From: Terracidiphilus sp.
GTDB taxonomy: Bacteria > Acidobacteriota > Terriglobia > Terriglobales > Acidobacteriaceae
Direction: 5' to 3'
DNA: 64,000 bases
NCBI GenBank assembly: GCA_049511595.1
Contig: JBEKXX010000001.1
Coordinates: 676-64,675 of the forward strand
The translations under genes and the position numbers were made by a program. Of this stretch, positions 4,810 to 39,730 are shown in pieces; the stretch's first letter is position 1, and the number at the start of each line of letters is the position of its first letter. Under the pieces are notes generated by a model. That model worked only from the letters and a program-made list of their open reading frames with translations. It made no database searches and was not told the DNA's origin.

Positions 4810-6288
4810 ATGTGGTTCCTGGGGATGGATGTGGGGACGGGCGGAACGCGGGCAGTCGTCGTGGACGGCGCGGGCAAGCTGAAGGGCACAGCTTCGAGCG
4901 AGCACAAGCCTTTCCGCGCCGAGCATCCGGGCTGGGCGGAGCAAGATCCCGAGGATTGGTGGCGCGCGGCGCAGAAGGCGATCCGTGGGGCACTGGCCGC
5001 GACGCCGGAGCCGCGGGAGCCGGTGGCAGCCATTGCGCTGACCGGGCAGATGCACGGGGCGGTGATGCTGGACGAGACGGGAGCGGTGCTGCGGCCGTCG
5101 CTGATCTGGTGCGACACGCGAACGCAGCCGGAGTGCGACTGGCTGACGGAAAAGATCGGGTACGAGAGGCTGATCGAGCTCACGTGCAATCCCGCGCTGC
5201 CCAACTTTACGCTGACCAAGCTGCTGTGGGTAAAGAAGCACGAGCCGGAGACGTTCAAGAAAATCAGGCACGCGATGTGCCCGAAGGACTATGTGCGCTA
5301 CCGGCTGACGGGCGAGTTTGCCATCGACGTGCAGGAGGCGAGCGGAACGCTGCTGCTGGACGTGACGCACCGGCGCTGGTCGCGCGAGGTAGCCGAGGCG
5401 GCGGGGATTGAAATGAGCTGGCTGCCCAAGGTGTATGAGTCGCCGGAGATTTGCGCGCGGATCAGCGAGAAGGCTGCGGGGCTGACCGGACTGAATGCGG
5501 GAACGCCGGTAGCCGCGGGCGCAGGCGACCAGGGCGCGGGCGCGGTGGGCATGGGGATTCTGGAGCCGGGCAGCGTGTCGGCAACAATCGGGACTTCGGG
5601 CGTGGTGTTCGCGGCAACGGCCGAGCCTACGAAGGATCCGAAGGGAAGGCTGCACACCTTTTGCCATGCCGTGCCGGGATTGTGGCACGTGATGGGCGTG
5701 ACGCAGAGCGCGGGCTTGAGCCTGAACTGGCTGCGCGGAACGTTCTTTGCCGGACAGAGCTACGACGCGATGAGCGAGGCGGCGGCGCGGGTTTCGGCTG
5801 GGAGCGAAGGCCTGGAGTGGGCGCCGTATCTGCTGGGCGAACGGACGCCACATCTCGATCCGGAGGTGCGGGCAGCGTTTGCGGGCATTAGCGCGCAGCA
5901 CTCGGCGGCGCACTTTGTGAGGGCGGTTCTCGAGGGCGTGGCGTATTCGCTCGAAGATACCTTTGCGCTATTCCGCGAGCTTGGGATTCCGGTGAGCGGC
6001 ATTCGCCTGGGCGGCGGCGGCGCGCGCGGCGCACTGTGGCAGAAGATTCAGGCGGGCATCTACGGGCACGCGGTGGAGGTGCTCGCAGCCGAAGAGGGCG
6101 GCGCGTTTGGCTGCGCGCTGATGGCCGGCGTGGGCGCGGGACACTGGAAGAACCTGGACGAAGCCTGCGGGCAGGCGATCGAAGTGGCGCAGCGGATTGA
6201 GCCGGATGCGGGCGATGTTGCGGCGTACAAGGCCGGATATGAGCGGTGGAGGAAGCTGTATCCGGCGCTGCGGGGACTTAAAAACTAG
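4810..6288 (+). CDS. xylB: Xylulokinase (FGGY family)
   Basis: LGMDVGTGGTRA, AEQDPEDWW, ALTGQMHG, ILWCD-like LIWCDTRT, GAGDQGAGA, PYLLGERTPH, RLGGGGARG motifs. Confidence 0.93.
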   Translation: MWFLGMDVGTGGTRAVVVDGAGKLKGTASSEHKPFRAEHPGWAEQDPEDWWRAAQKAIRGALAATPEPREPVAAIALTGQMHGAVMLDETGAVLRPSLIWCDTRTQPECDWLTEKIGYERLIELTCNPALPNFTLTKLLWVKKHEPETFKKIRHAMCPKDYVRYRLTGEFAIDVQEASGTLLLDVTHRRWSREVAEAAGIEMSWLPKVYESPEICARISEKAAGLTGLNAGTPVAAGAGDQGAGAVGMGILEPGSVSATIGTSGVVFAATAEPTKDPKGRLHTFCHAVPGLWHVMGVTQSAGLSLNWLRGTFFAGQSYDAMSEAAARVSAGSEGLEWAPYLLGERTPHLDPEVRAAFAGISAQHSAAHFVRAVLEGVAYSLEDTFALFRELGIPVSGIRLGGGGARGALWQKIQAGIYGHAVEVLAAEEGGAFGCALMAGVGAGHWKNLDEACGQAIEVAQRIEPDAGDVAAYKAGYERWRKLYPALRGLKN

Positions 6289-6323
6289 TGGTCAGTGGTC
6301 AGTGATCAGTGGTCAGGGGTCAG
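6286..6323. repeat. Heptamer tandem array (CAGTGGT)
   Basis: TAGTGGT CAGTGGT CAGTGAT CAGTGGT CAGGGGT directly after the xylB stop. Confidence 0.85.
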
Positions 6324-6333
6324 AAAACGCCGC

Positions 6334-7002
6334 TTACGCGCCGGCAACAACAAAGTCGGCGAAGGTGAAGCCGTCGCGGGTGACGATTTCGCCGGTCGTG
6401 AGCGGAAGCGGAGCGGAGAACATGGGGCCGGCGTAGACGCAGGTGTGAAACTCGCCGCGCTCACCGCAGGGGTCGGCCTGGGACGGAAGATCGCGTAAAA
6501 AATCCTCATCGAATTCACGGCCGGCAAAGGCGGCGGGGAGTTGCTTCGTGTCGACACAGGAGAGGCGGGCGCGCAGGCCGCCGGCGATCATCTCGCGCGC
6601 GAGCGCATCGGTGGGGAGCTGCCAAAGAGGAAAGAGCGGCTCAAGGCCGGTGGGCGCAAGCTGGCGAACGCGATAGGCGCGGACGTCTTCAAGAAATAAA
6701 TCTCCGAAGGCGACGGCTTCGATGTGTTCATTGATGGCGCGCTCGCAGGTTTCGGCCATGCGCTGCTCATAGACTTCATTGGGACAGGGCCAGGGAAGCG
6801 GAACGATCCAGAGCGGGAGTCCGGCGGCGGCAGCCTGCGCCTCGAGGACCGCGCGGCGGACGCCGTGCATGGCGACGCGGTCGAACTCGGAGTTGAGTGT
6901 GGTGAGAAGGCCGCAAATTTCGATGGCGGGATCGCGGCGCAGGGCGTGTAGCGCCCACGCGCTGTCTTTGCCGCTGCTCCAGGAGAGAAGAACGCGCTTC
7001 AT
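6334..7002 (-). CDS. Dph6/MJ0570-like ATP pyrophosphatase (adenine nucleotide alpha hydrolase)
   Basis: SWSSGKDS PP-loop, VAFGDLFLED, DPCGERGEFHT. Confidence 0.9.
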   Translation of the reverse strand: MKRVLLSWSSGKDSAWALHALRRDPAIEICGLLTTLNSEFDRVAMHGVRRAVLEAQAAAAGLPLWIVPLPWPCPNEVYEQRMAETCERAINEHIEAVAFGDLFLEDVRAYRVRQLAPTGLEPLFPLWQLPTDALAREMIAGGLRARLSCVDTKQLPAAFAGREFDEDFLRDLPSQADPCGERGEFHTCVYAGPMFSAPLPLTTGEIVTRDGFTFADFVVAGA

Positions 7003-7079
7003 AGAACGATGATAGCGGCAGCAGTGCCGGAAGCAGATTCCGTAACGGGCGATGACGCCGCCTATAATCGGACCGGGAG

Positions 7080-8249
7080 ATGAGCAGAACCATGAAGATC
7101 AATTTCTTTGCCGATCGCATCGGCGGCTGGCGTTTATTGGCGTTGAGCGCGGTTTTGCTGGTGTGCCGGCCTGCCTCGATGTACGGCGCGCAGGATGCGC
7201 AGGCGGGGCCGGCGCCGTTGCGTGTGGCGATTGTGGGCCTGGAACACGGGCATGTGGAGGCGTTTCTGCGGGCGCTGCCACAACACAAAGACGTCACTCT
7301 GGTAGCGGTTGTGGATGCTGACCAGGCGCTGGCAGAGAAGTACCAGAAGAAATTCAACCTGCCGCCGAGCCTGTTCTACCCGAGCCTGGAAGCGATGATC
7401 CCGGCGCAGCATCCGCAGGCGCTGCTGGTGTACGCGCCCATCGCGCAGCACCGCGGCGTGATCGAGAAGGCGGCGCAGTATGGCGTCTCAGTGATGGTGG
7501 AGAAGCCGCTGACCATCTCGCTCGAGGATGCGCTGGCGATTCGCAAGGCCGCGCGCGAGCACCACATACATGTGCTGGTGAATTACGAGACGACGTGGTA
7601 CGCGAGCAACCGCGCCGCCTACGACGCCGTGGAGCAGGGGCAACTGGGCGCGATCCGGCGCGTGGTGGCGCACGATGGCCACCAGGGTCCCGTGGAGATT
7701 CACACGCCGCCTGAATTTCTTCGCTGGCTGACCGACCCGGCGCAGAACGGAGCCGGCGCGCTCTACGATTTCGGCTGCTACGGCGTGGATCTGATGACAT
7801 GGCTGATGCACGGAGAGACGCCTCTGACGGTGACGGCCGTGACGAACCACGACAAGCCTGAGATGTATCCGCGCGTGGATGACGACGCGACGATCGTGCT
7901 GACTTATCCCCGCGCGCAGGCGGTGATTCAGGCTTCGTGGAACTGGCCGTTCAACCGCAAGGATATGGAAGTGTGTGGCGCGACGGGTTACGCGATCACG
8001 GTGGGCGCGGACCAGGTGCGCGTGCGTCACGAGCACGACGCGGCGGAGCAACTGATCACGGCGCCGCCGCTGAACGCGCCCGAGGATAATTCACTCGATT
8101 ACCTGGCTGCCGTGTTGAACGGACAGATCGAGTCGAAGGGCGACCTGAGCGCGCTGGACACGAATGTGGTGGTGATGCAGATTCTTGATGCCGCGCGCGA
8201 GTCCGTGCGGACGGGAAAGACTATTAAACTGGCCAAGCTGCCGGAATAA
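7080..8249 (+). CDS. Gfo/Idh/MocA oxidoreductase with N-terminal signal peptide
   Basis: VAIVGLEHGH Rossmann fold, VMVEKPL, GAGALYDFGCYG. Confidence 0.9.
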   Translation: MSRTMKINFFADRIGGWRLLALSAVLLVCRPASMYGAQDAQAGPAPLRVAIVGLEHGHVEAFLRALPQHKDVTLVAVVDADQALAEKYQKKFNLPPSLFYPSLEAMIPAQHPQALLVYAPIAQHRGVIEKAAQYGVSVMVEKPLTISLEDALAIRKAAREHHIHVLVNYETTWYASNRAAYDAVEQGQLGAIRRVVAHDGHQGPVEIHTPPEFLRWLTDPAQNGAGALYDFGCYGVDLMTWLMHGETPLTVTAVTNHDKPEMYPRVDDDATIVLTYPRAQAVIQASWNWPFNRKDMEVCGATGYAITVGADQVRVRHEHDAAEQLITAPPLNAPEDNSLDYLAAVLNGQIESKGDLSALDTNVVVMQILDAARESVRTGKTIKLAKLPE

Positions 8250-30762: not shown

Positions 30763-30826
30763 AGCGGAGCTAGCGGGGTTAGCGGAGTTGGAGAACGACC
30801 CCACCCTAGCGGGGCTAGGACATGGC
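30763..30826. repeat. 9-mer array AGCGG(A/G)G(C/T)T followed by a degenerate CCCCACCC-type REP hairpin
   Basis: AGCGGAGCT AGCGGGGTT AGCGGAGTT (30763-30789), then CCCCACCCTAGCGGGGCTAGG. Confidence 0.7.
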
Positions 30827-30893
30827 ACAAGGCTATGTTGTAAATTGCGATTGAGCTTTATCTCAGGTCAAATGCGTGGCAGCGGAGCGAAAA

Positions 30894-31910
30894 ATGAAGG
30901 CGGGAAAGATTATCACTATCGTCATCGCAAGCGTAGCGAGCCTCATCGTGCTCGCTGCAGCCGTCGCGGCGGCAGGCCTTTTCGGGCTATCGAAGATTGG
31001 TAGCCAGCAAAACTTCCCGCCACCAGAAGGTCAGCAGGCGGTTTCTCAGTCGGGAAACCTCATTCTTTTCTCCGAGGCAAGTGGAAGCTCCTCCTTCCTG
31101 TACCTTCAGGATTCGAGCGGCAAAAAGAAAACTCGACTTACGGGTGCTCTGAAGGGAATTGAATCGGAACCGAGCTTCTCCCACGATGGCAAGTTCGTGG
31201 TCTATACCTTTGCAGACTCGCCGAATTCCAAATCGGCTGTTTGGCTGGTGGGTGTGGATGGAAATAACCCCCACGCCATAAGCGACAGCGATCAGGACGC
31301 GCTTCACCCGGTTTTTTCCCCAGACGACACAAAGGTCTTTTATGCGGTGTCAAACTTCTCCGGACATTACTCTCCGATTGTTCGACCTGCCCGACACGAT
31401 TGGGATCTGTTTTCAATTCCGGTCGGATCAGGTACGCATGCGGGGACTGTGCCCACTCAGATTACTCACGAATCTTTTTATGATCTTCGTTCTCTTGATG
31501 CTACCGCTGATGGGCTCAATCCGGGAGGGACCAAGCTGCTGATTAGCACATCGGGGTATCCGATAGGAGAGCTAATTGAAGAGTTCAACTTAGACGCCGC
31601 CGGTCGAAACAAAATTTTCCAGCCGCACGTTCCCGGTGAATCGTCAGTGGGCCCTTCTTACGGAGAGGCACGTTTCATACATGACGGGATGGAAATCCTG
31701 TTTCTCGCTGCGACAGATACATCCGGCGGGGACTATGACTACAACATCTATTCAATGAGCGACGTGACCGGGGCAGAAATCAAGCAGCTTACTCACCTGA
31801 AAGGGATGACGAAGGATTTACGGGTCGTACCCAGCGAAAAAGCGCTCTTTGAGAATGGCGGAGCCATTCAGCTGTTGGATCTGAGCACACAGACTGTAAA
31901 GCCCATTTAG
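30894..31910 (+). CDS. Membrane-anchored TolB-like (PD40) beta-propeller protein, lower GC
   Basis: N-terminal TM; EPSFSHDGKFVVY and HPVFSPDDTKVFY PD40 repeats; GC 32/60 and 27/60 in two lines counted. Confidence 0.7.
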   Translation: MKAGKIITIVIASVASLIVLAAAVAAAGLFGLSKIGSQQNFPPPEGQQAVSQSGNLILFSEASGSSSFLYLQDSSGKKKTRLTGALKGIESEPSFSHDGKFVVYTFADSPNSKSAVWLVGVDGNNPHAISDSDQDALHPVFSPDDTKVFYAVSNFSGHYSPIVRPARHDWDLFSIPVGSGTHAGTVPTQITHESFYDLRSLDATADGLNPGGTKLLISTSGYPIGELIEEFNLDAAGRNKIFQPHVPGESSVGPSYGEARFIHDGMEILFLAATDTSGGDYDYNIYSMSDVTGAEIKQLTHLKGMTKDLRVVPSEKALFENGGAIQLLDLSTQTVKPI

Positions 31911-31972
31911 AGATACGCGAAGCATTTGGGAACATGATGGGCCTGCTCCCTTCTTGCAGCTTAGCGGTTTGC

Positions 31973-34427: not shown

Positions 34428-35159
34428 TTACGGCAGTTTGGCCATATCCATGTTCCAGGGTTTGCCGGTGGGAACATTCAGCGGCTCTTCGGCCTCGTAC
34501 CCTTCCTTGCGGAAGCGCACCTGAATCGTCCTGGGCTGCGGTTGCGGCAGGTGCAGATCGTAGCGCCCCTGCGCGTCAGTCAGAGCAGAGGCCTGCACTC
34601 GGTTCGCGGCCAGAACATCTACCTCAACGCCCGCAACGGGCATGCTGGTGACGCGATCGGTGACCTCGCCCTGGAACTCCCACGGCGGCGGCGGACGCAA
34701 GGCAAACCAAAGGGCCACGCCAGCCAGGATCGCCGCGAGCGCCGCAAGCGCCGCCTGCAACCTGCGTCTGCGTCGCAGCGGCCAGCCCAGCGCCGGCTTG
34801 AGCTGCGCGGCCGCTTGCGCGGGATCGGCGGCGGTGATGCCCTGGATCTCGAGCATCGCCGGAAGGGGCGTCTTATCCAGCAGCCAGGGAAGGATGGGTT
34901 TGCGCATCGCCTCGGCGCGAGAGTACTCGAAGGTGATGTAGTCGGAGCCGCGCGTGTTCTGCGACCAGCACAGCACCAGCGCGCGCGAGGCGCGAATGGA
35001 TCGCTCCAGGCGGCGCTTCCACTGCTCGCCTGGATCGATCGATTGCACGTCGAAGAAGACGCGATAGCCAAGCCGGCGCAGCTCGTCGCGCAGGGGCGCA
35101 ACGCGCTCGGCGTCGGCGCGGGAGTAACTGAAGAACACGTCGTACTTGACCATCGCCAT
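34428..35159 (-). CDS. TIR domain - transmembrane helix - CarboxypepD_reg/Ig-like domain protein
   Basis: YDVFFSYSRAD...VFFDVQSIDPGEQW...SRALVLCWS..SDYITFEY TIR_2 pattern; RRRR then a hydrophobic helix (about 34698-34760); GEVTD...PVAGVEV...TDAQGRY...KEGY. Start is 35159 or 35153. Confidence 0.85.
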   Translation of the reverse strand: MAMVKYDVFFSYSRADAERVAPLRDELRRLGYRVFFDVQSIDPGEQWKRRLERSIRASRALVLCWSQNTRGSDYITFEYSRAEAMRKPILPWLLDKTPLPAMLEIQGITAADPAQAAAQLKPALGWPLRRRRRLQAALAALAAILAGVALWFALRPPPPWEFQGEVTDRVTSMPVAGVEVDVLAANRVQASALTDAQGRYDLHLPQPQPRTIQVRFRKEGYEAEEPLNVPTGKPWNMDMAKLP

Positions 35160-35164
35160 AAGCG

Positions 35165-37693
35165 CTATTGTTGCAGGATCGGTTCGAGCTGGTGAAGAGC
35201 AGCGGTCATGCCGGCGCGGTCGCCGTTCTGGACGGCGGTGAAGAGCGCGATCCAGGAGGCGCGGCCGTTGCTGAAGGCGGGTGAGGCTGAAAGGATTTGA
35301 AGCGACCCGGTAAAATCCCAAACCGCCGCCTCCAGCATTACAGACTTCGACAGGAGCACTTTTTCCGTTTGCCGCGCCGCGTTTTTGTCTCCCGCGCCCC
35401 ACTGGCAGGCGAACTCGATGGTGTCTCGCACCACGGCCTGCGGCGCGGATAAGGAGTCGTCGGTGAGGACTGCCACGCGCTGAATACACGCGGAGTAGCG
35501 TGCGGCCATAAAACTGACTTCCATAATGTTCATTTGCGTTTCGGCCCAATCCTCGGGCAGATCGGCTTTGGTGTCCACCTCAAGCGCACTTTGATAAGCC
35601 TGGACGGCCTGGTCGAACAAAACCCTGGCTTGGTCCCCTCCGGTATGCAACGCCTCGCTTGCCAGCGCGTCGCCCAGATCGAGCTGCGCCGTCGCCCAGT
35701 ATTGCGGCAGATCGGCTTTGGTGAAGACCTCAAGCGACTTTTCAAACGCCTGCACGGATTGAGCGAGGAGGGGGCCTGCTTTATCCCCGCTGGCGCGCAG
35801 CCCCTCCTGCATCCATGTCAAACCGAGATTGATTTGCGCTCTCCCCCAGTCCTGAGGCAGATCGGCCTTGGTGTAAACTTCCAGCGCGCTTTGATAGGCC
35901 TGCGCCGCCCGATCGAAGAGGGCGGGGGCGTTTTCGTCGCTGGCGCGAATTGCCTCATCCTCGAGCGCGCTTCCCAGGTTGTTCTGGATCTGGGCCCAAG
36001 CCTGCGGAAGGCCGTCCCTGGTGATCACCTCAAGTGCGCTCTTGAAGGCTTGCACAGCCCGATCGAGCAGAGCGGCGTTGTTCGCCTGGCTGGATCTCAG
36101 GCCCTCGTCCATCAAGGCAAGGCCCAAAGCATCCTGGGTAATGGCCCAGCGCTGAGGGAGGTCAGCTTTGGTATCGACTTCAAGCGCGTTTCCGAAGGCC
36201 TGCACCGCAGCGTCAAGCAGAGCAACGGCCTTTGCGCCGACGGCGTGCTCGCTTTCCCGGGTCAGCGCAACTCCGAGGCTGAATTGGGTTCTGGCCCATT
36301 CCTGGGGCTGGTTGGCCCTGGTGGTGACCTCGAGCGCCTGATGAAAGGCCTGCACAGCCTGGTCGAATAGCGCAGTGGCCTTGTCGCCGCTGGCGCGCTG
36401 AGCCTGGTCCGCAAGCGCGTTTCCGAGATCGTTTTGCGTGGCGGCCCAGTCCTGGGGCTGATCGGCTCTGGTGCGTACGGCAAGCGCGTCCTGGTAAGCA
36501 TGGGCCGCTCGATCGTAGAGAGCCGCAGCCTTGTCACCGCTCACACGGGCCGCCTCATCGGCCAGTGCGCTGCCCAGACCGGCTTGCGCCGCTGCGCTCT
36601 CGCGGCGATCGCCCAACGCGGCATAGTCGCGCGCCAGCGACTCGAAATCCTCCACGGATTGAGCCAGCAGGCCTAGGCTCTGGCTGGCGGGCGAAACCTC
36701 GCCCTCAGCTTTGCGCGCAGCGCCCAGGTCAGAAACGGCTCGCAGCCACAACTCGTTAAAACCCCTATCGCCGGGATGCTTCCCGTGTTCGGCAGCAGCG
36801 GTGGCTGCGGCGGTTTCGAGGGTCTGCGTGGCGAGGCGATACTGCTCGGCGAGTTGCGAGGCGCTCGCGCTCTGCTCGCGGTCGTTGATCAACTGGCGCA
36901 GCTTGTCGCGGCGGGCGTTGAGAAAGGCTTGTTCTTCGGCGTCGAGTTCGTCCTTGTCGGCGGCGGCGGCCTCGTCAAATAACTGCGCGGCGCTGGCGTA
37001 GTGCTTGAGCGCAACCTCGGCCAAGGCCTTTTGCTCGGTGGTGGCCTGCGCCGGCTGACGCTGGATGTTCTGCGCCCATTGCTGCACCTGCTGGTTGACC
37101 TGGCCGGCGGAAAAACCATTCGCCTGGGCCCATTCGGCGATGGCGGCGCCAAGGTCGACCTTCTGGTTCTGCGCCTCGGCAACTTCGGCCTTCAGCGCCA
37201 GGTTTTGTTTCTTGAGGCTGTTGACCTGAAGCAACATGCGGTGCAGGGCCGCTTCGATCTGCGCCGGGCCGGTGAGCGCGAGCGAGCCTTTCGGCAGCAG
37301 GCTGACCTGGACGGTTGCGGGCAGCGCGGCAGCCTTTCCCTCGGCGGACCGGAAGTCGGGTAATTGGCCGTCGGCTGGCTCGTAGATGACCAGGCCGGTT
37401 GCGCCTGCGATCTCAATGCGCAGATTTCCACGCTGCGACGCGTCGGGCGAAACCAGCAGCAATGCCTCGCCCCCGGAGTTGGTGACCTGCTGCGCGTCGG
37501 TGATGGTCAATCCGCTATCGAGATAGCTGAGCGCGACACGGACGCCTTTGACCGGTTGGCGCGGTTGCGGCAGCACGTTGACCACCAGCACCATGACGTT
37601 CTGCTCCGGCGTGGGCTTTTGCGCGCCCGCGGAAGCGGCTACGCAGCCTATTCCCAGCAAAAGAAGAACTGCCTTGCCCAGCCTGTTCTTCAT
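35165..37693 (-). CDS. Secreted TPR-repeat protein (about seven 50-aa repeats)
   Basis: Signal peptide MKNRLGKAVLLLLGIGCVAASAGA; beta-rich N-domain; coiled coil; repeats W-A-x-T-Q-x-x-L-G-x-A-L...A-V-Q-A-F/Y-x-x-A-L-E-V-x-T-K-A-D-L-P with a 150-bp period. Confidence 0.85.
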   Translation of the reverse strand: MKNRLGKAVLLLLGIGCVAASAGAQKPTPEQNVMVLVVNVLPQPRQPVKGVRVALSYLDSGLTITDAQQVTNSGGEALLLVSPDASQRGNLRIEIAGATGLVIYEPADGQLPDFRSAEGKAAALPATVQVSLLPKGSLALTGPAQIEAALHRMLLQVNSLKKQNLALKAEVAEAQNQKVDLGAAIAEWAQANGFSAGQVNQQVQQWAQNIQRQPAQATTEQKALAEVALKHYASAAQLFDEAAAADKDELDAEEQAFLNARRDKLRQLINDREQSASASQLAEQYRLATQTLETAAATAAAEHGKHPGDRGFNELWLRAVSDLGAARKAEGEVSPASQSLGLLAQSVEDFESLARDYAALGDRRESAAAQAGLGSALADEAARVSGDKAAALYDRAAHAYQDALAVRTRADQPQDWAATQNDLGNALADQAQRASGDKATALFDQAVQAFHQALEVTTRANQPQEWARTQFSLGVALTRESEHAVGAKAVALLDAAVQAFGNALEVDTKADLPQRWAITQDALGLALMDEGLRSSQANNAALLDRAVQAFKSALEVITRDGLPQAWAQIQNNLGSALEDEAIRASDENAPALFDRAAQAYQSALEVYTKADLPQDWGRAQINLGLTWMQEGLRASGDKAGPLLAQSVQAFEKSLEVFTKADLPQYWATAQLDLGDALASEALHTGGDQARVLFDQAVQAYQSALEVDTKADLPEDWAETQMNIMEVSFMAARYSACIQRVAVLTDDSLSAPQAVVRDTIEFACQWGAGDKNAARQTEKVLLSKSVMLEAAVWDFTGSLQILSASPAFSNGRASWIALFTAVQNGDRAGMTAALHQLEPILQQ

Positions 37694-38042: not shown

Positions 38043-38333
38043 ATGCGGCCTTCGGAGATACTGCCGCTGCACCGGGAGACCATTCGCCGGCTTGTGTCGC
38101 AAGCGGGAATGGCGAACCCGCGCGTATTCGGGAGCGTGGTGCGCGGCGAGGACACCGAAGACAGCGATCTGGACATTCTGGTGGACCCCGCCCCACGGAC
38201 GAGTTTGCTGGATCTCGCCGGCCTTCAGATTGATATTGCAGAGAAGACCGGAGCCAACGTTGACCTCCTGACTCCAAATTGTCTTCCAGTGAAGTTTCGG
38301 CAGAGGGTTCTGGACGAGGCCCAGCCGGTATGA
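38043..38333 (+). CDS. mntA: Minimal nucleotidyltransferase antitoxin (MntA-like)
   Basis: RVFGSVVRGEDTEDSDLDILVD (GS-x10-DxD), VDLLT. Confidence 0.9.
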   Translation: MRPSEILPLHRETIRRLVSQAGMANPRVFGSVVRGEDTEDSDLDILVDPAPRTSLLDLAGLQIDIAEKTGANVDLLTPNCLPVKFRQRVLDEAQPV

Positions 38334-38698
38334 GCCAGCATCCGGAGCGCGTCGGGGATTATCTCGAACACATACTCGCCGCCGTCGATCGCATTCAGCG
38401 ATATATCGCGGGCAAGTCTGTGGCCGACTTCATGGCCGACACGATTCTTCAGGATGCCGTGCTGCGGAACCTCGGTGTCGTTGGCGAAGCAGCACGCAAG
38501 CTAATTGCTGACTCTCCAGAGTACGCGGCACTGCATCCGGAGATTCCGCTGGCGAAGATCAATGCGACACGAAACCGGATTATCCATGCCTACGAAGAGG
38601 TTGATCTGGACATAATCTGGAATCTGCTTTTGTACGATGTCTCCGTTCTCCGGCCAAAGATCGTCGAGGCGCTGAATGCGATCAAGAGAGAGCAGTAG
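38330..38698 (+). CDS. hepT: HEPN/DUF86 ribonuclease toxin (HepT-like)
   Basis: YLEHIL, DAVLRNLGVVGEA, RNRIIHAY (R-x4-H plus the downstream Tyr); ATGA overlap with the MNT gene. Confidence 0.9.
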   Translation: MSQHPERVGDYLEHILAAVDRIQRYIAGKSVADFMADTILQDAVLRNLGVVGEAARKLIADSPEYAALHPEIPLAKINATRNRIIHAYEEVDLDIIWNLLLYDVSVLRPKIVEALNAIKREQ

Positions 38699-38741
38699 GC
38701 GAATAGTCTAGCGCGCGAAAAAGCGGGAAGAACGTAAGGTG

Positions 38742-39707
38742 ATGGAGATGGAAGATCAAGAGTTGCAACAAACTGGAACCCCGCCGAAGCCTGAGGGACT
38801 GCTCTATCATTACACGGATGAAAAAGGGCTCTATGGAATACTTGACAGTGGAGAGATATGGGCGACACACTATCGTTTCCTAAATGACCTGGCAGAGCAA
38901 AAAGAAGGCTCCGCCCTCCTATATTCATTTCTCGACGAAACAAATCTCGAATACACAAGACTATACCGAAACGAGATTAAGATGTTGTTCGACTATGACC
39001 TTACTCATATGCAACTGTTTGTAGCATCGTTCTCTGGGGATTCCGCAGATGCCGTCGGCGGAGACCGGCTAAGTCAATGGCGCGGGTACTCTCCAAATCG
39101 GACCGGTTTCAGTCTTGGATTTGACGGCAGCCTTTTGAGAGCCAAAGCTGAGAGCCTAATGGTCAAGACAGTGCTAGCGGTATTTCTGTGGCAATGCGTT
39201 TATTCAAAAGAGGGCAAGAATGAGATAGAGAGAAAAATCACGTCAGTTTTCGAGGAAAAGGTTGAGATGAATCTCAACGCTTTTTCCCAGAAATGGGCAC
39301 ATTTCAGTAGAGAAAATGTTGAGATGGGCCAGTTGAATCGAGAAAAAAGGAGGCAGGAGTTTCGTGAAATTGCGTTTTACCCGCTTCGTGACGAATTTCT
39401 AAGGTGGTGTGCAACCCTGAAGCATGAAGGATTTAATGAGGAGCGCGAGTGGAGGTTAGCTTGTTATGTCCACGAGGAGGTTACAGATTTGAAATTTGTC
39501 CAGCTCCGGGACAGGCAATATGGGCACACTCCCAACATTCAGGTCCCTCTCGGCTTATCTGATTCAGATTCCCCGTTGAAGCGGATTGTTGTGGGTCCGT
39601 CCCAAAATCATGAGCAAGCCGCTATCAGCTTAGGGATTGAACTCGCGAAGAGGGGTCTCAAGGGTGTTAAGGTCGTCCCCTCCCAAATCCCATACCGCAA
39701 CTGGTAA
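38742..39707 (+). CDS. DUF2971-domain protein, low GC
   Basis: LYHYT...LND..E, FVASFS...DRLSQWRGY, KHEGFNEEREWR; GC 27/60 and 23/60 at 38881-39000 versus 42/60 in xylB. Confidence 0.8.
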   Translation: MEMEDQELQQTGTPPKPEGLLYHYTDEKGLYGILDSGEIWATHYRFLNDLAEQKEGSALLYSFLDETNLEYTRLYRNEIKMLFDYDLTHMQLFVASFSGDSADAVGGDRLSQWRGYSPNRTGFSLGFDGSLLRAKAESLMVKTVLAVFLWQCVYSKEGKNEIERKITSVFEEKVEMNLNAFSQKWAHFSRENVEMGQLNREKRRQEFREIAFYPLRDEFLRWCATLKHEGFNEEREWRLACYVHEEVTDLKFVQLRDRQYGHTPNIQVPLGLSDSDSPLKRIVVGPSQNHEQAAISLGIELAKRGLKGVKVVPSQIPYRNW

Positions 39708-39730
39708 ATCCCATTTCGGGGTACACTAAA

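Follow-up and report, generated by a model that had tools for sequence, protein, structure and literature searches.

A two-gene cassette in a peat-soil Acidobacterium (Terracidiphilus sp.) is predicted to encode an envelope-spanning TIR module, in which a membrane-anchored TIR protein is coupled to a secreted partner that carries a long array of tetratricopeptide repeat (TPR)-like repeats. The cassette lies on the minus strand of a 64,000-nt stretch of DNA (contig JBEKXX010000001.1, positions 676 to 64,675), which was analyzed as a whole and is referred to here as the window; gene 1 encodes the partner, P0002, and gene 2 encodes the TIR protein, P0001 (Table 1). We read the pair as a self-contained module that works from the outside in, is activated by clustering, and serves in conflict or alarm, and we give this reading as a whole a probability of about 0.5.

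The assignment of P0001 as a TIR protein rests on both profile and structure comparisons. Pfam places TIR_2 (PF13676) at residues 8–112 with 75.9 bits against a cut-off of 28, and CarboxypepD_reg (PF13620) at residues 163–238 with 37.9 bits against a cut-off of 32.3. An AlphaFold2 model built from an alignment of 64 sequences (mean predicted local distance difference test (pLDDT) score of 88) comprises a TIR fold at residues 6–124, one long helix at 128–154, and a beta-sandwich at 160–239; in Foldseek searches the first domain matches TIR-STING, SARM1, and AbTir, and the last matches the transthyretin-like domain of carboxypeptidase D. In a profile search of Protein Data Bank sequences, the P0001 motif SDYITFEY lines up with DWTNYEL (AbTir) and DWVHKEI (SARM1), such that Glu78 corresponds to the catalytic glutamates of these enzymes, which we take to be E208 and E642, respectively. 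Glu78 is invariant among 64 homologues, as are F9, S11, Y12, D16, W65, and S66, and the TIR domain is the best-conserved part of the protein (mean identity 81%). In its catalytic-position glutamate, the TIR domain of P0001 resembles those that cleave nicotinamide adenine dinucleotide (NAD), and NADase activity is predicted for it. These findings bear out a first-pass annotation, made from the letters of the window, which had described an N-terminal TIR domain with a glutamate at the catalytic position, one transmembrane helix, and a C-terminal CarboxypepD_reg or immunoglobulin (Ig)-like domain; the same annotation had placed a cluster of four arginines before the helix, and the positive cluster is indeed there, although it contains five.

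Charge and hydropathy indicate how P0001 is likely to sit in the membrane. The segment at residues 134–154 has a mean Kyte-Doolittle hydropathy of 2.26, and it is flanked by a mean of 4.6 lysines and arginines on its N-terminal side compared to 1.4 on its C-terminal side, with the N-terminal excess present in all 64 of 64 homologues. The N-terminus of P0001 contains no hydrophobic stretch, and the linker that follows the transmembrane helix (PPPPW) is invariant. Because of the positive-inside charge bias and the lack of a hydrophobic N-terminus, the TIR domain is predicted to be cytoplasmic and the beta-sandwich periplasmic. It is very likely, judged from these features and the signal peptide of P0002, that the TIR domain faces the cytoplasm whereas the Ig-like domain and the TPR protein share the periplasm, as had been supposed at first pass. 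The lone conserved cysteine pair of the partner, described below, fits with its residence in an oxidizing compartment.

P0002 begins with a signal peptide of the Sec type, with a positive N-terminus, that is common to the aligned relatives; a crude signal-peptide rule was passed by 84 of 123 called partners, with the failures being mostly miscalled starts. The AlphaFold2 model of P0002 (mean pLDDT 73) shows a beta-sandwich at residues 31–134, long helices of low confidence at 143–280, a confident solenoid of helical hairpins extending to approximately residue 730, and a helical C-terminal domain. The low confidence at residues 143–280 is as expected of a predicted coiled coil that needs partners. 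The hairpins of the solenoid are modeled at pLDDT >90 and match the TPRs of LGN/Pins in Foldseek (TM score 0.75–0.84, on the target), which marks the region as a TPR-like solenoid. Its seven repeats, each exactly 50 aa long, can be read from tryptophans at positions 416, 466, 516, 566, 616, 666, and 716. Pfam TPR models have zero matches to P0002 at E ≤ 1, and relatives of P0002 match TPR_1, TPR_10, and TPR_12; we therefore use the label TPR-like, on the strength of the structure and the matches of the relatives. With DNA copies only ~64–70% alike, the corresponding 150-bp repeats escaped Tandem Repeats Finder, and it is at the protein level that they are seen. C736 and C763 are both invariant in the partner alignment, and 105 of the 123 partners show a C-x(20-35)-C pattern. 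The exported protein with a beta-rich N-terminal domain, a coiled coil, and about seven 50-aa repeats that the first-pass annotation had outlined is thus upheld by the kept signal peptide, the model, and the tryptophan spacing.

Table 1 Features of the gene pair, with positions in the window (complement of the forward strand; residues are those of the respective protein).
Feature	Position	Strand	Basis or remark
Gene 1, P0002, exported partner, 842 aa	35165..37693	-	Open reading frame and translation; stop codon included
P0002 predicted signal peptide, residues 1–25 (MK..., hydrophobic core, A-x-A/QK)	37619..37693	-	Kept in aligned partners
P0002 N-terminal Ig-like beta-sandwich, residues 30–135	37289..37606	-	AlphaFold2 strands at 31–134; weak Big_1 match
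P0002 linker (LPKGS..GPAQIEA), coiled coil, and helical region, residues 136–362	36608..37288	-	Invariant motifs; low-pLDDT helices at 143–280
P0002 seven 50-aa TPR-like repeats, residues 363–722	35528..36607	-	Tryptophan spacing; pLDDT >90; LGN/Pins matches
P0002 C-terminal helical domain, residues 723–842, with C736 and C763	35168..35527	-	Sole two cysteines of the mature protein
Spacer CGCTT, 5 nt, from gene 1 stop TAG to gene 2 ATG at 35159	35160..35164	-	Same 5-nt gap in most related loci
Gene 2, P0001, TIR-transmembrane-Ig protein, 243 aa	34428..35159	-	Open reading frame and translation; Pfam; AlphaFold2 model; stop codon included
P0001 TIR domain, residues 5–124, predicted cytoplasmic	34788..35147	-	TIR_2; AbTir and SARM1 matches; topology predicted
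P0001 Glu78 codon, catalytic position of TIR NADases	34926..34928	-	Aligned to catalytic Glu of AbTir and SARM1
P0001 Arg129–Arg133 cluster, then transmembrane helix at residues 134–154	34698..34775	-	Single helix in AlphaFold2 model
P0001 CarboxypepD_reg/transthyretin-like beta-sandwich, residues 160–239, predicted periplasmic	34443..34682	-	PF13620; Foldseek

The two genes very probably form one functional unit, as their adjacency is conserved over approximately 40 loci, in Terracidiphilus-like Acidobacteriaceae, and is therefore not a matter of chance. Homologues of P0001 number >300 (240–250 aa, 60–99% identity), the named ones belonging to Terracidiphilus and Telmatobacter. Among 38 loci taken from genomes and metagenomes (L037–L074), a P0002 homologue adjoins the TIR gene in 37, and the sole exception (L067) begins inside the TIR gene and so has too little flank to tell. 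In four further loci (L081–L084) the partner is intact in three and decayed in one (L081). The common arrangement is partner first with a 5-nt gap; at L038, L039, L074, and L057 the TIR gene comes first. Close relatives (92–95% DNA identity) carry the pair at the same site, between lipB and rnpB, whereas more distant loci have only the two genes in common and sit among unrelated sets of neighbours, namely IS66 with a patatin-like gene and a resolvase; SpoIIE phosphatases; leuA with a dynamin-like GTPase; aconitase with pheST; and lpxD. Three loci (L053, L058, and L084) contain two partner paralogues for one TIR gene, arranged in tandem upstream or flanking it on both sides. The two-gene operon of the first-pass annotation is thereby confirmed, coordinates included, and its expectation that genes for such TIR proteins with a PF13620 domain would recur next to genes for TPR proteins with signal peptides holds across these loci, in two deep lineages and both gene orders. 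We note that a further partner-like gene starts 7 kb away at L038 and L074, and that in Telmatobacter sp. DSM 110680 (CP121196.1; L037:1787-4621) a gene of 944 aa with a weak patatin match lies 63 nt upstream of the partner on the same strand and adjoins IS66, with a resolvase nearby, an arrangement found at this locus only.

The full scan, which covered 1.8 billion representatives, also recovered full-length proteins of the same TIR-transmembrane-Ig architecture at only 33–39% identity to P0001. In three contexts of this deep lineage, with TIR identities of 34–39%, the TIR gene is followed, at 0–5 nt, by a large gene, so that the order is inverted relative to that in the window while the pairing is kept. 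The products of the large genes (P0420, 864 aa; P0421, 616 aa) are laid out as is P0002, with a signal peptide, a CarboxypepD_reg-like start, 50-aa repeats, and a C-terminal cysteine pair, and they contain the motifs WA..YGF, ALAEF, and SSPAF. The N-terminal sandwich of P0420 matches CarboxypepD_reg, and the alignment of the deep-lineage partner to P0002 spans the full length (29% identity, E 5e-71). TIR proteins of this lineage (231–235 aa) are absent from 400 sampled genomes of the phylum, and a BamA gene on one of its contigs has best matches of 43–46%, to another family of the same class. On one contig of the lineage (L091:993-2312 and 5698-7356) the genes next to the cassette encode a ParB_N-N6_N4 methyltransferase and a deaminase-domain protein of 552 aa, a neighbourhood that is mobile or defence-like.

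Two single-chain proteins found in the full scan join a related TIR module to TPRs directly. Specifically, P0257 (580 aa) shares 60% identity with P0001 over the TIR-transmembrane part and continues, past the membrane helix, into a FlgO-like domain and canonical TPRs; P0270 (620 aa) shares 51% over that part and has only canonical TPRs beyond its helix. These fusions link the TIR-transmembrane module to TPR-based sensing across the membrane and support the predicted topology. They resemble the window pair in where the TPRs lie, which is past the transmembrane helix and on the side that holds the Ig-like domain of P0001. They differ from it in that the sensor is in cis and is built of canonical 34-aa TPRs, with the FlgO-like domain in P0257, whereas the window pair carries its 50-aa repeats on a protein of their own, predicted to be exported, and leaves the TIR chain with only a small beta-sandwich. 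The source genome itself contains five further TIR genes (contigs C19, C35, C122, C190, and C26; loci L001, L006, L005, L002, and L004, respectively). Two of them encode products of 473 and 414 aa in which an N-terminal TIR domain precedes a transmembrane-like segment and an unannotated tail; another encodes a TIR-nSTAND1 protein in an open frame of 1480 aa, with a transmembrane-like segment after the NTPase.

The way in which the domains of the cassette vary among relatives suggests where the two proteins might meet. Comparison of per-domain distance matrices across 30 cassettes indicated that the P0001 ectodomain and the partner's N-terminal sandwich co-vary (r = 0.87, and a partial r of 0.84 once the TIR domain is accounted for), with type assignments agreeing at an adjusted Rand index (ARI) of 0.92, whereas the correlations of the P0001 ectodomain with every other domain are 0.40–0.52. 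A second block (ARI 0.89) unites the helical region of the partner with its C-terminal domain, and the window and L066 have the inner block in common and not the outer block. At the three loci with two partners for a single TIR gene, the paralogues are 73–79% identical in the N-terminal sandwich as against 46–52% in the C-terminal domain. The co-variation and the paralogue pattern fit with the two sandwiches docking onto one another and with the sensor block being exchangeable. The same co-variation can, however, arise from neutral gene conversion between cassettes at different sites that replaces internal tracts only.

Both the distribution and the length of the partner are uneven. The pair is present in two of five genomes of the genus: G280 has two copies, and G062, G256, and G483 have none. 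Several metagenome-assembled genomes also have two copies; no orthologue was detected in 150 other genomes of the family (approximately one per genus), where the best match is 36% identical and covers the TIR domain only. Partner length ranges from 477 to ~1580 aa among relatives, and within one set (P0227–P0241) that has the same N-terminal 340 aa, lengths of 577, 627, 677, 727, and 777 aa, each from different samples, correspond to whole 50-aa repeats gained or lost. Decayed cassettes occur at L064, L072, L073, and L081, with partner genes that are cut short or broken up over several frames, and at L072 and L073 the TIR protein is also shortened. In close pairs the ratio of nonsynonymous to synonymous substitution rates (dN/dS) is 0.06–0.37 for both genes, indicating purifying selection, with values by domain of 0.10–0.18 for the TIR domain and 0.16–0.37 for the repeats.

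Taken together, these features suggest a mechanism, which we offer as a proposal. P0001 would span the inner membrane such that its N-terminal TIR domain is in the cytoplasm and its transthyretin-like sandwich in the periplasm, into which the partner would be exported by the Sec pathway. The N-terminal sandwich of the partner would dock onto the P0001 ectodomain, the coiled coil would allow the partner to self-associate, and the surface used for sensing would be that of the TPR solenoid of variable length, together with the C-terminal domain that contains the cysteine pair. Part of a phage, a toxin, or damage to the envelope could serve as the periplasmic cue, which may then alter the oligomeric state of the partner, either by binding it or by removing it, and the altered state would bring the cytoplasmic TIR domains together. 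Self-association of the TIR domains would lead to NAD+ cleavage, as in SARM1, AbTir, TIR-STING, SPARTA, and TIR-SAVED, and the output would be depletion of NAD+ accompanied by growth arrest, or else a nucleotide signal. Since no effector gene is linked to the pair in any context, the TIR domain itself is probably the effector, acting by NAD+ depletion; a diffusible product with a reader elsewhere is the less probable output.

We slightly favour a role in conflict or immunity over one in ordinary signalling, because the distribution of the cassette is patchy, mobile, and decaying, and because the sensor is variable; ordinary signalling keeps a good deal of weight because the neighbours are mostly housekeeping genes and positive selection is not evident. 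The most specific version of the proposal, an outside-in pattern-recognition complex in which a reshuffled secreted TPR sensor, held by Ig-Ig docking to a TIR transducer, would convert a phage, a toxin, or damage into NAD+ collapse, is put forward only tentatively. Several observations weigh against our reading of the pair. Most of the neighbourhoods consist of housekeeping genes and are not defence islands; coarse pairwise dN/dS by domain is <0.4 throughout; and no copy was found on viral contigs or among PLSDB plasmids. The lack of a linked effector gene makes the TIR domain as output an assumption. The signal peptide and the transmembrane helix were called by simple rules rather than by SignalP or DeepTMHMM. 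A profile-profile comparison of the two sandwiches gave an E value of 0.33, which is not significant, and under neutral gene conversion the two ends would stay linked if crossovers fell within the linker and the highly conserved TIR domain. The envelope-sensing TIR receptor that had been proposed at first pass is thus supported in part: the pairing as a unit, the predicted topology, and the retained glutamate speak for it, whereas the mostly housekeeping surroundings, as opposed to classical defence islands, do not.

A rather unlikely alternative is that the pair is a non-immune envelope receptor, in which a periplasmic cue such as a nutrient polymer, the state of the cell wall, or cell density would cause the TIR domain to make a nucleotide messenger for readers encoded elsewhere. 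The housekeeping neighbours and the purifying selection throughout would suit such a receptor, as would the several other TIR-transmembrane-type proteins of the genome, which suggest a receptor repertoire. A receptor of this kind is harder to reconcile with the occurrence of the pair in just two of the five genus genomes and in none of the 150 other genera sampled, with a genomic position that shifts between genomes and copies that decay, and with the lack of any recurrent reader or effector gene nearby. Less probable still is a structural or scaffolding complex of the envelope, with the TIR domain serving as an interaction module as it does in animal adaptors and the partner as a periplasmic scaffold. 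TPR, coiled-coil, and Ig-like modules are typical of scaffolds, one Foldseek match (rank 36) is a periplasmic flagellar scaffold, and there is no enzymatic partner; however, the catalytic-position glutamate and the motif around it are invariant across the 64 homologues, the TIR domain is the part under the strongest conservation, and a patchy accessory distribution would be unusual for a structural component. Finally, a toxin-antidote or addiction pair, in which the partner restrains a TIR toxin and so stabilizes the cassette on mobile DNA, is very improbable despite the tight coupling of the genes over 5 nt, the MNT-HepT pair next door in the window, and the IS66 and resolvase near the Telmatobacter copy, as an exported partner (as predicted) cannot directly meet a cytoplasmic TIR domain, no copy was found on a plasmid or viral contig, and an antidote of 842–1580 aa would be unusual.

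The outside-in TIR module that we propose for the window pair has counterparts among known systems, each of which it matches in part. The nearest validated one is TIR-II of Escherichia coli, a proven anti-phage system that combines TIR and TPR in one protein or two (Nat Commun 2024, PMC11350192) and whose defence requires the active-site residues of the TIR domain (PMC11350192). Like TIR-II, the window pair combines a TIR domain with a TPR array; TIR-II is without a reported signal peptide or membrane span, whereas in the window pair the TPR protein is predicted to be exported and the TIR protein to be membrane-anchored with an ectodomain. SARM1, AbTir, TIR-STING, the SPARTA TIR-APAZ protein, and TIR-SAVED are the best sequence and fold matches to the P0001 TIR domain, with the catalytic glutamate aligned. 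Self-association switches on the SARM1, AbTir, SPARTA, and TIR-SAVED NADases. The NADase activity of TIR-STING is likewise activated by self-association (PMC9402430). This switch, established for those enzymes, is proposed here for P0001; their triggers are cytoplasmic (NMN, cyclic nucleotides, or a guide-target duplex), whereas the sensor parts of the window pair are predicted to be periplasmic.

The layout of the pair also recalls that of the Toll-like and interleukin-1 (IL-1) receptors of animals, which have an ectodomain of repeats or Ig domains, one transmembrane helix, a cytoplasmic TIR domain, and a soluble or separate extracellular partner, and which are activated by induced proximity, as we propose for the window pair. 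P0001 differs from these receptors in having the inverted polarity (an N-terminal TIR domain and type II topology), in being without leucine-rich repeats (LRRs), and in having a single beta-sandwich as its ectodomain; its TIR domain looks enzymatic and not adaptor-like, and outside the TIR domain there is no homology. P0001 is therefore not a Toll-like receptor as defined by an N-terminal LRR ectodomain, a transmembrane helix, and a C-terminal TIR domain. ThsB of Thoeris is also a TIR protein of bacterial immunity, and its hidden Markov models match P0001 partially, but ThsB is cytoplasmic and every score of P0001 is under the cut-off (PF08937, 19.5 bits versus 21.2; NCBIfam ThcB4, 37.8 versus 220). 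Neither the window nor any of 11 annotated contexts has a ThsA-type effector (SIR2, Macro, SLOG, or transmembrane) beside the pair. The pair does not belong with CBASS or Pycsar, as there is no cyclase in any context and no SAVED, STING, or cyclic-nucleotide-binding sensor on P0001. The first-pass annotation was accordingly right that no ThsA, cyclase, or NLR partner accompanies the pair. Its further claim that no named system has this layout holds for PADLOC and NCBIfam, whose matches (PDC-S66, SAVED-TIR, pAgo-TIR, ThsB, ThcB4, and retron-TIR) involve the TIR part only and fall far under the curated cut-offs; it had overlooked TIR-II of E. coli (PMC11350192) and the single-chain relatives with TIR, transmembrane, and TPR parts. 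Full-text literature searches for membrane- or periplasm-linked bacterial TIR receptors returned no description of the layout. What is new here, within TIR-based systems, is the predicted extracytoplasmic sensing by a separate secreted partner.

In the window, an SD (Shine-Dalgarno)-like GAGG precedes the ATG of gene 1 by 5 nt, and there is no such sequence upstream of the start of gene 2, which fits with translational coupling of gene 2 to gene 1. Downstream of the pair, on the same strand, are lipB and a gene for a 2-oxoacid dehydrogenase E2 component; upstream, on the opposite strand, are an MNT-HepT gene pair, a DUF2971 gene, the RNase P RNA gene (rnpB), and dut, so that the MNT-HEPN/DUF2971 islet noted at first pass is confirmed in each of its components. 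This islet is variable and sits at the 5′ end of rnpB: from the MNT gene to rnpB (38209–39713), where the window has HepT and DUF2971, four close relatives have ~1.2–2.1 kb of unrelated DNA instead. The MNT protein matches the PADLOC candidate PDC-S09 (E 8e-28). We considered whether the TIR gene pair belongs to this islet and rejected the idea, as close relatives keep the pair while the content of the islet changes, and distant relatives have only the pair in common. An attempted comparison with an empty site made use of the cassette-free genus mate G062, in which lipB adjoins dnaN and rnpB lies at a contig end. Elsewhere in the window, a PD40/TolB-like gene (30876–31910) is located within a stretch of low GC content (30789–31972; 0.52 versus ~0.65) that is absent from four close relatives, whose flanks are otherwise 88–94% identical; this stretch looks like a recent insertion.

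The cassette lends itself to direct testing, being small, consisting of only two genes, and occurring in a cultured strain, Telmatobacter sp. DSM 110680, with E78A as a clear catalytic mutant, and relatives with shuffled sensor blocks and differing numbers of repeats make up a natural set of variants with which specificity could be mapped. Known bacterial TIR systems sense cytoplasmic events. If our reading of the window pair is true, bacterial immunity or signalling would gain, through an extracytoplasmic sensor, a new layer of input, one that would permit sensing before, or without, the entry of foreign nucleic acid. The layout of the animal Toll-like receptors, with the sensor outside, the TIR domain inside, and activation by proximity, would then exist in bacteria with an enzymatic TIR domain, and the two proteins would constitute a working analogue of a Toll-like receptor and its co-receptor.

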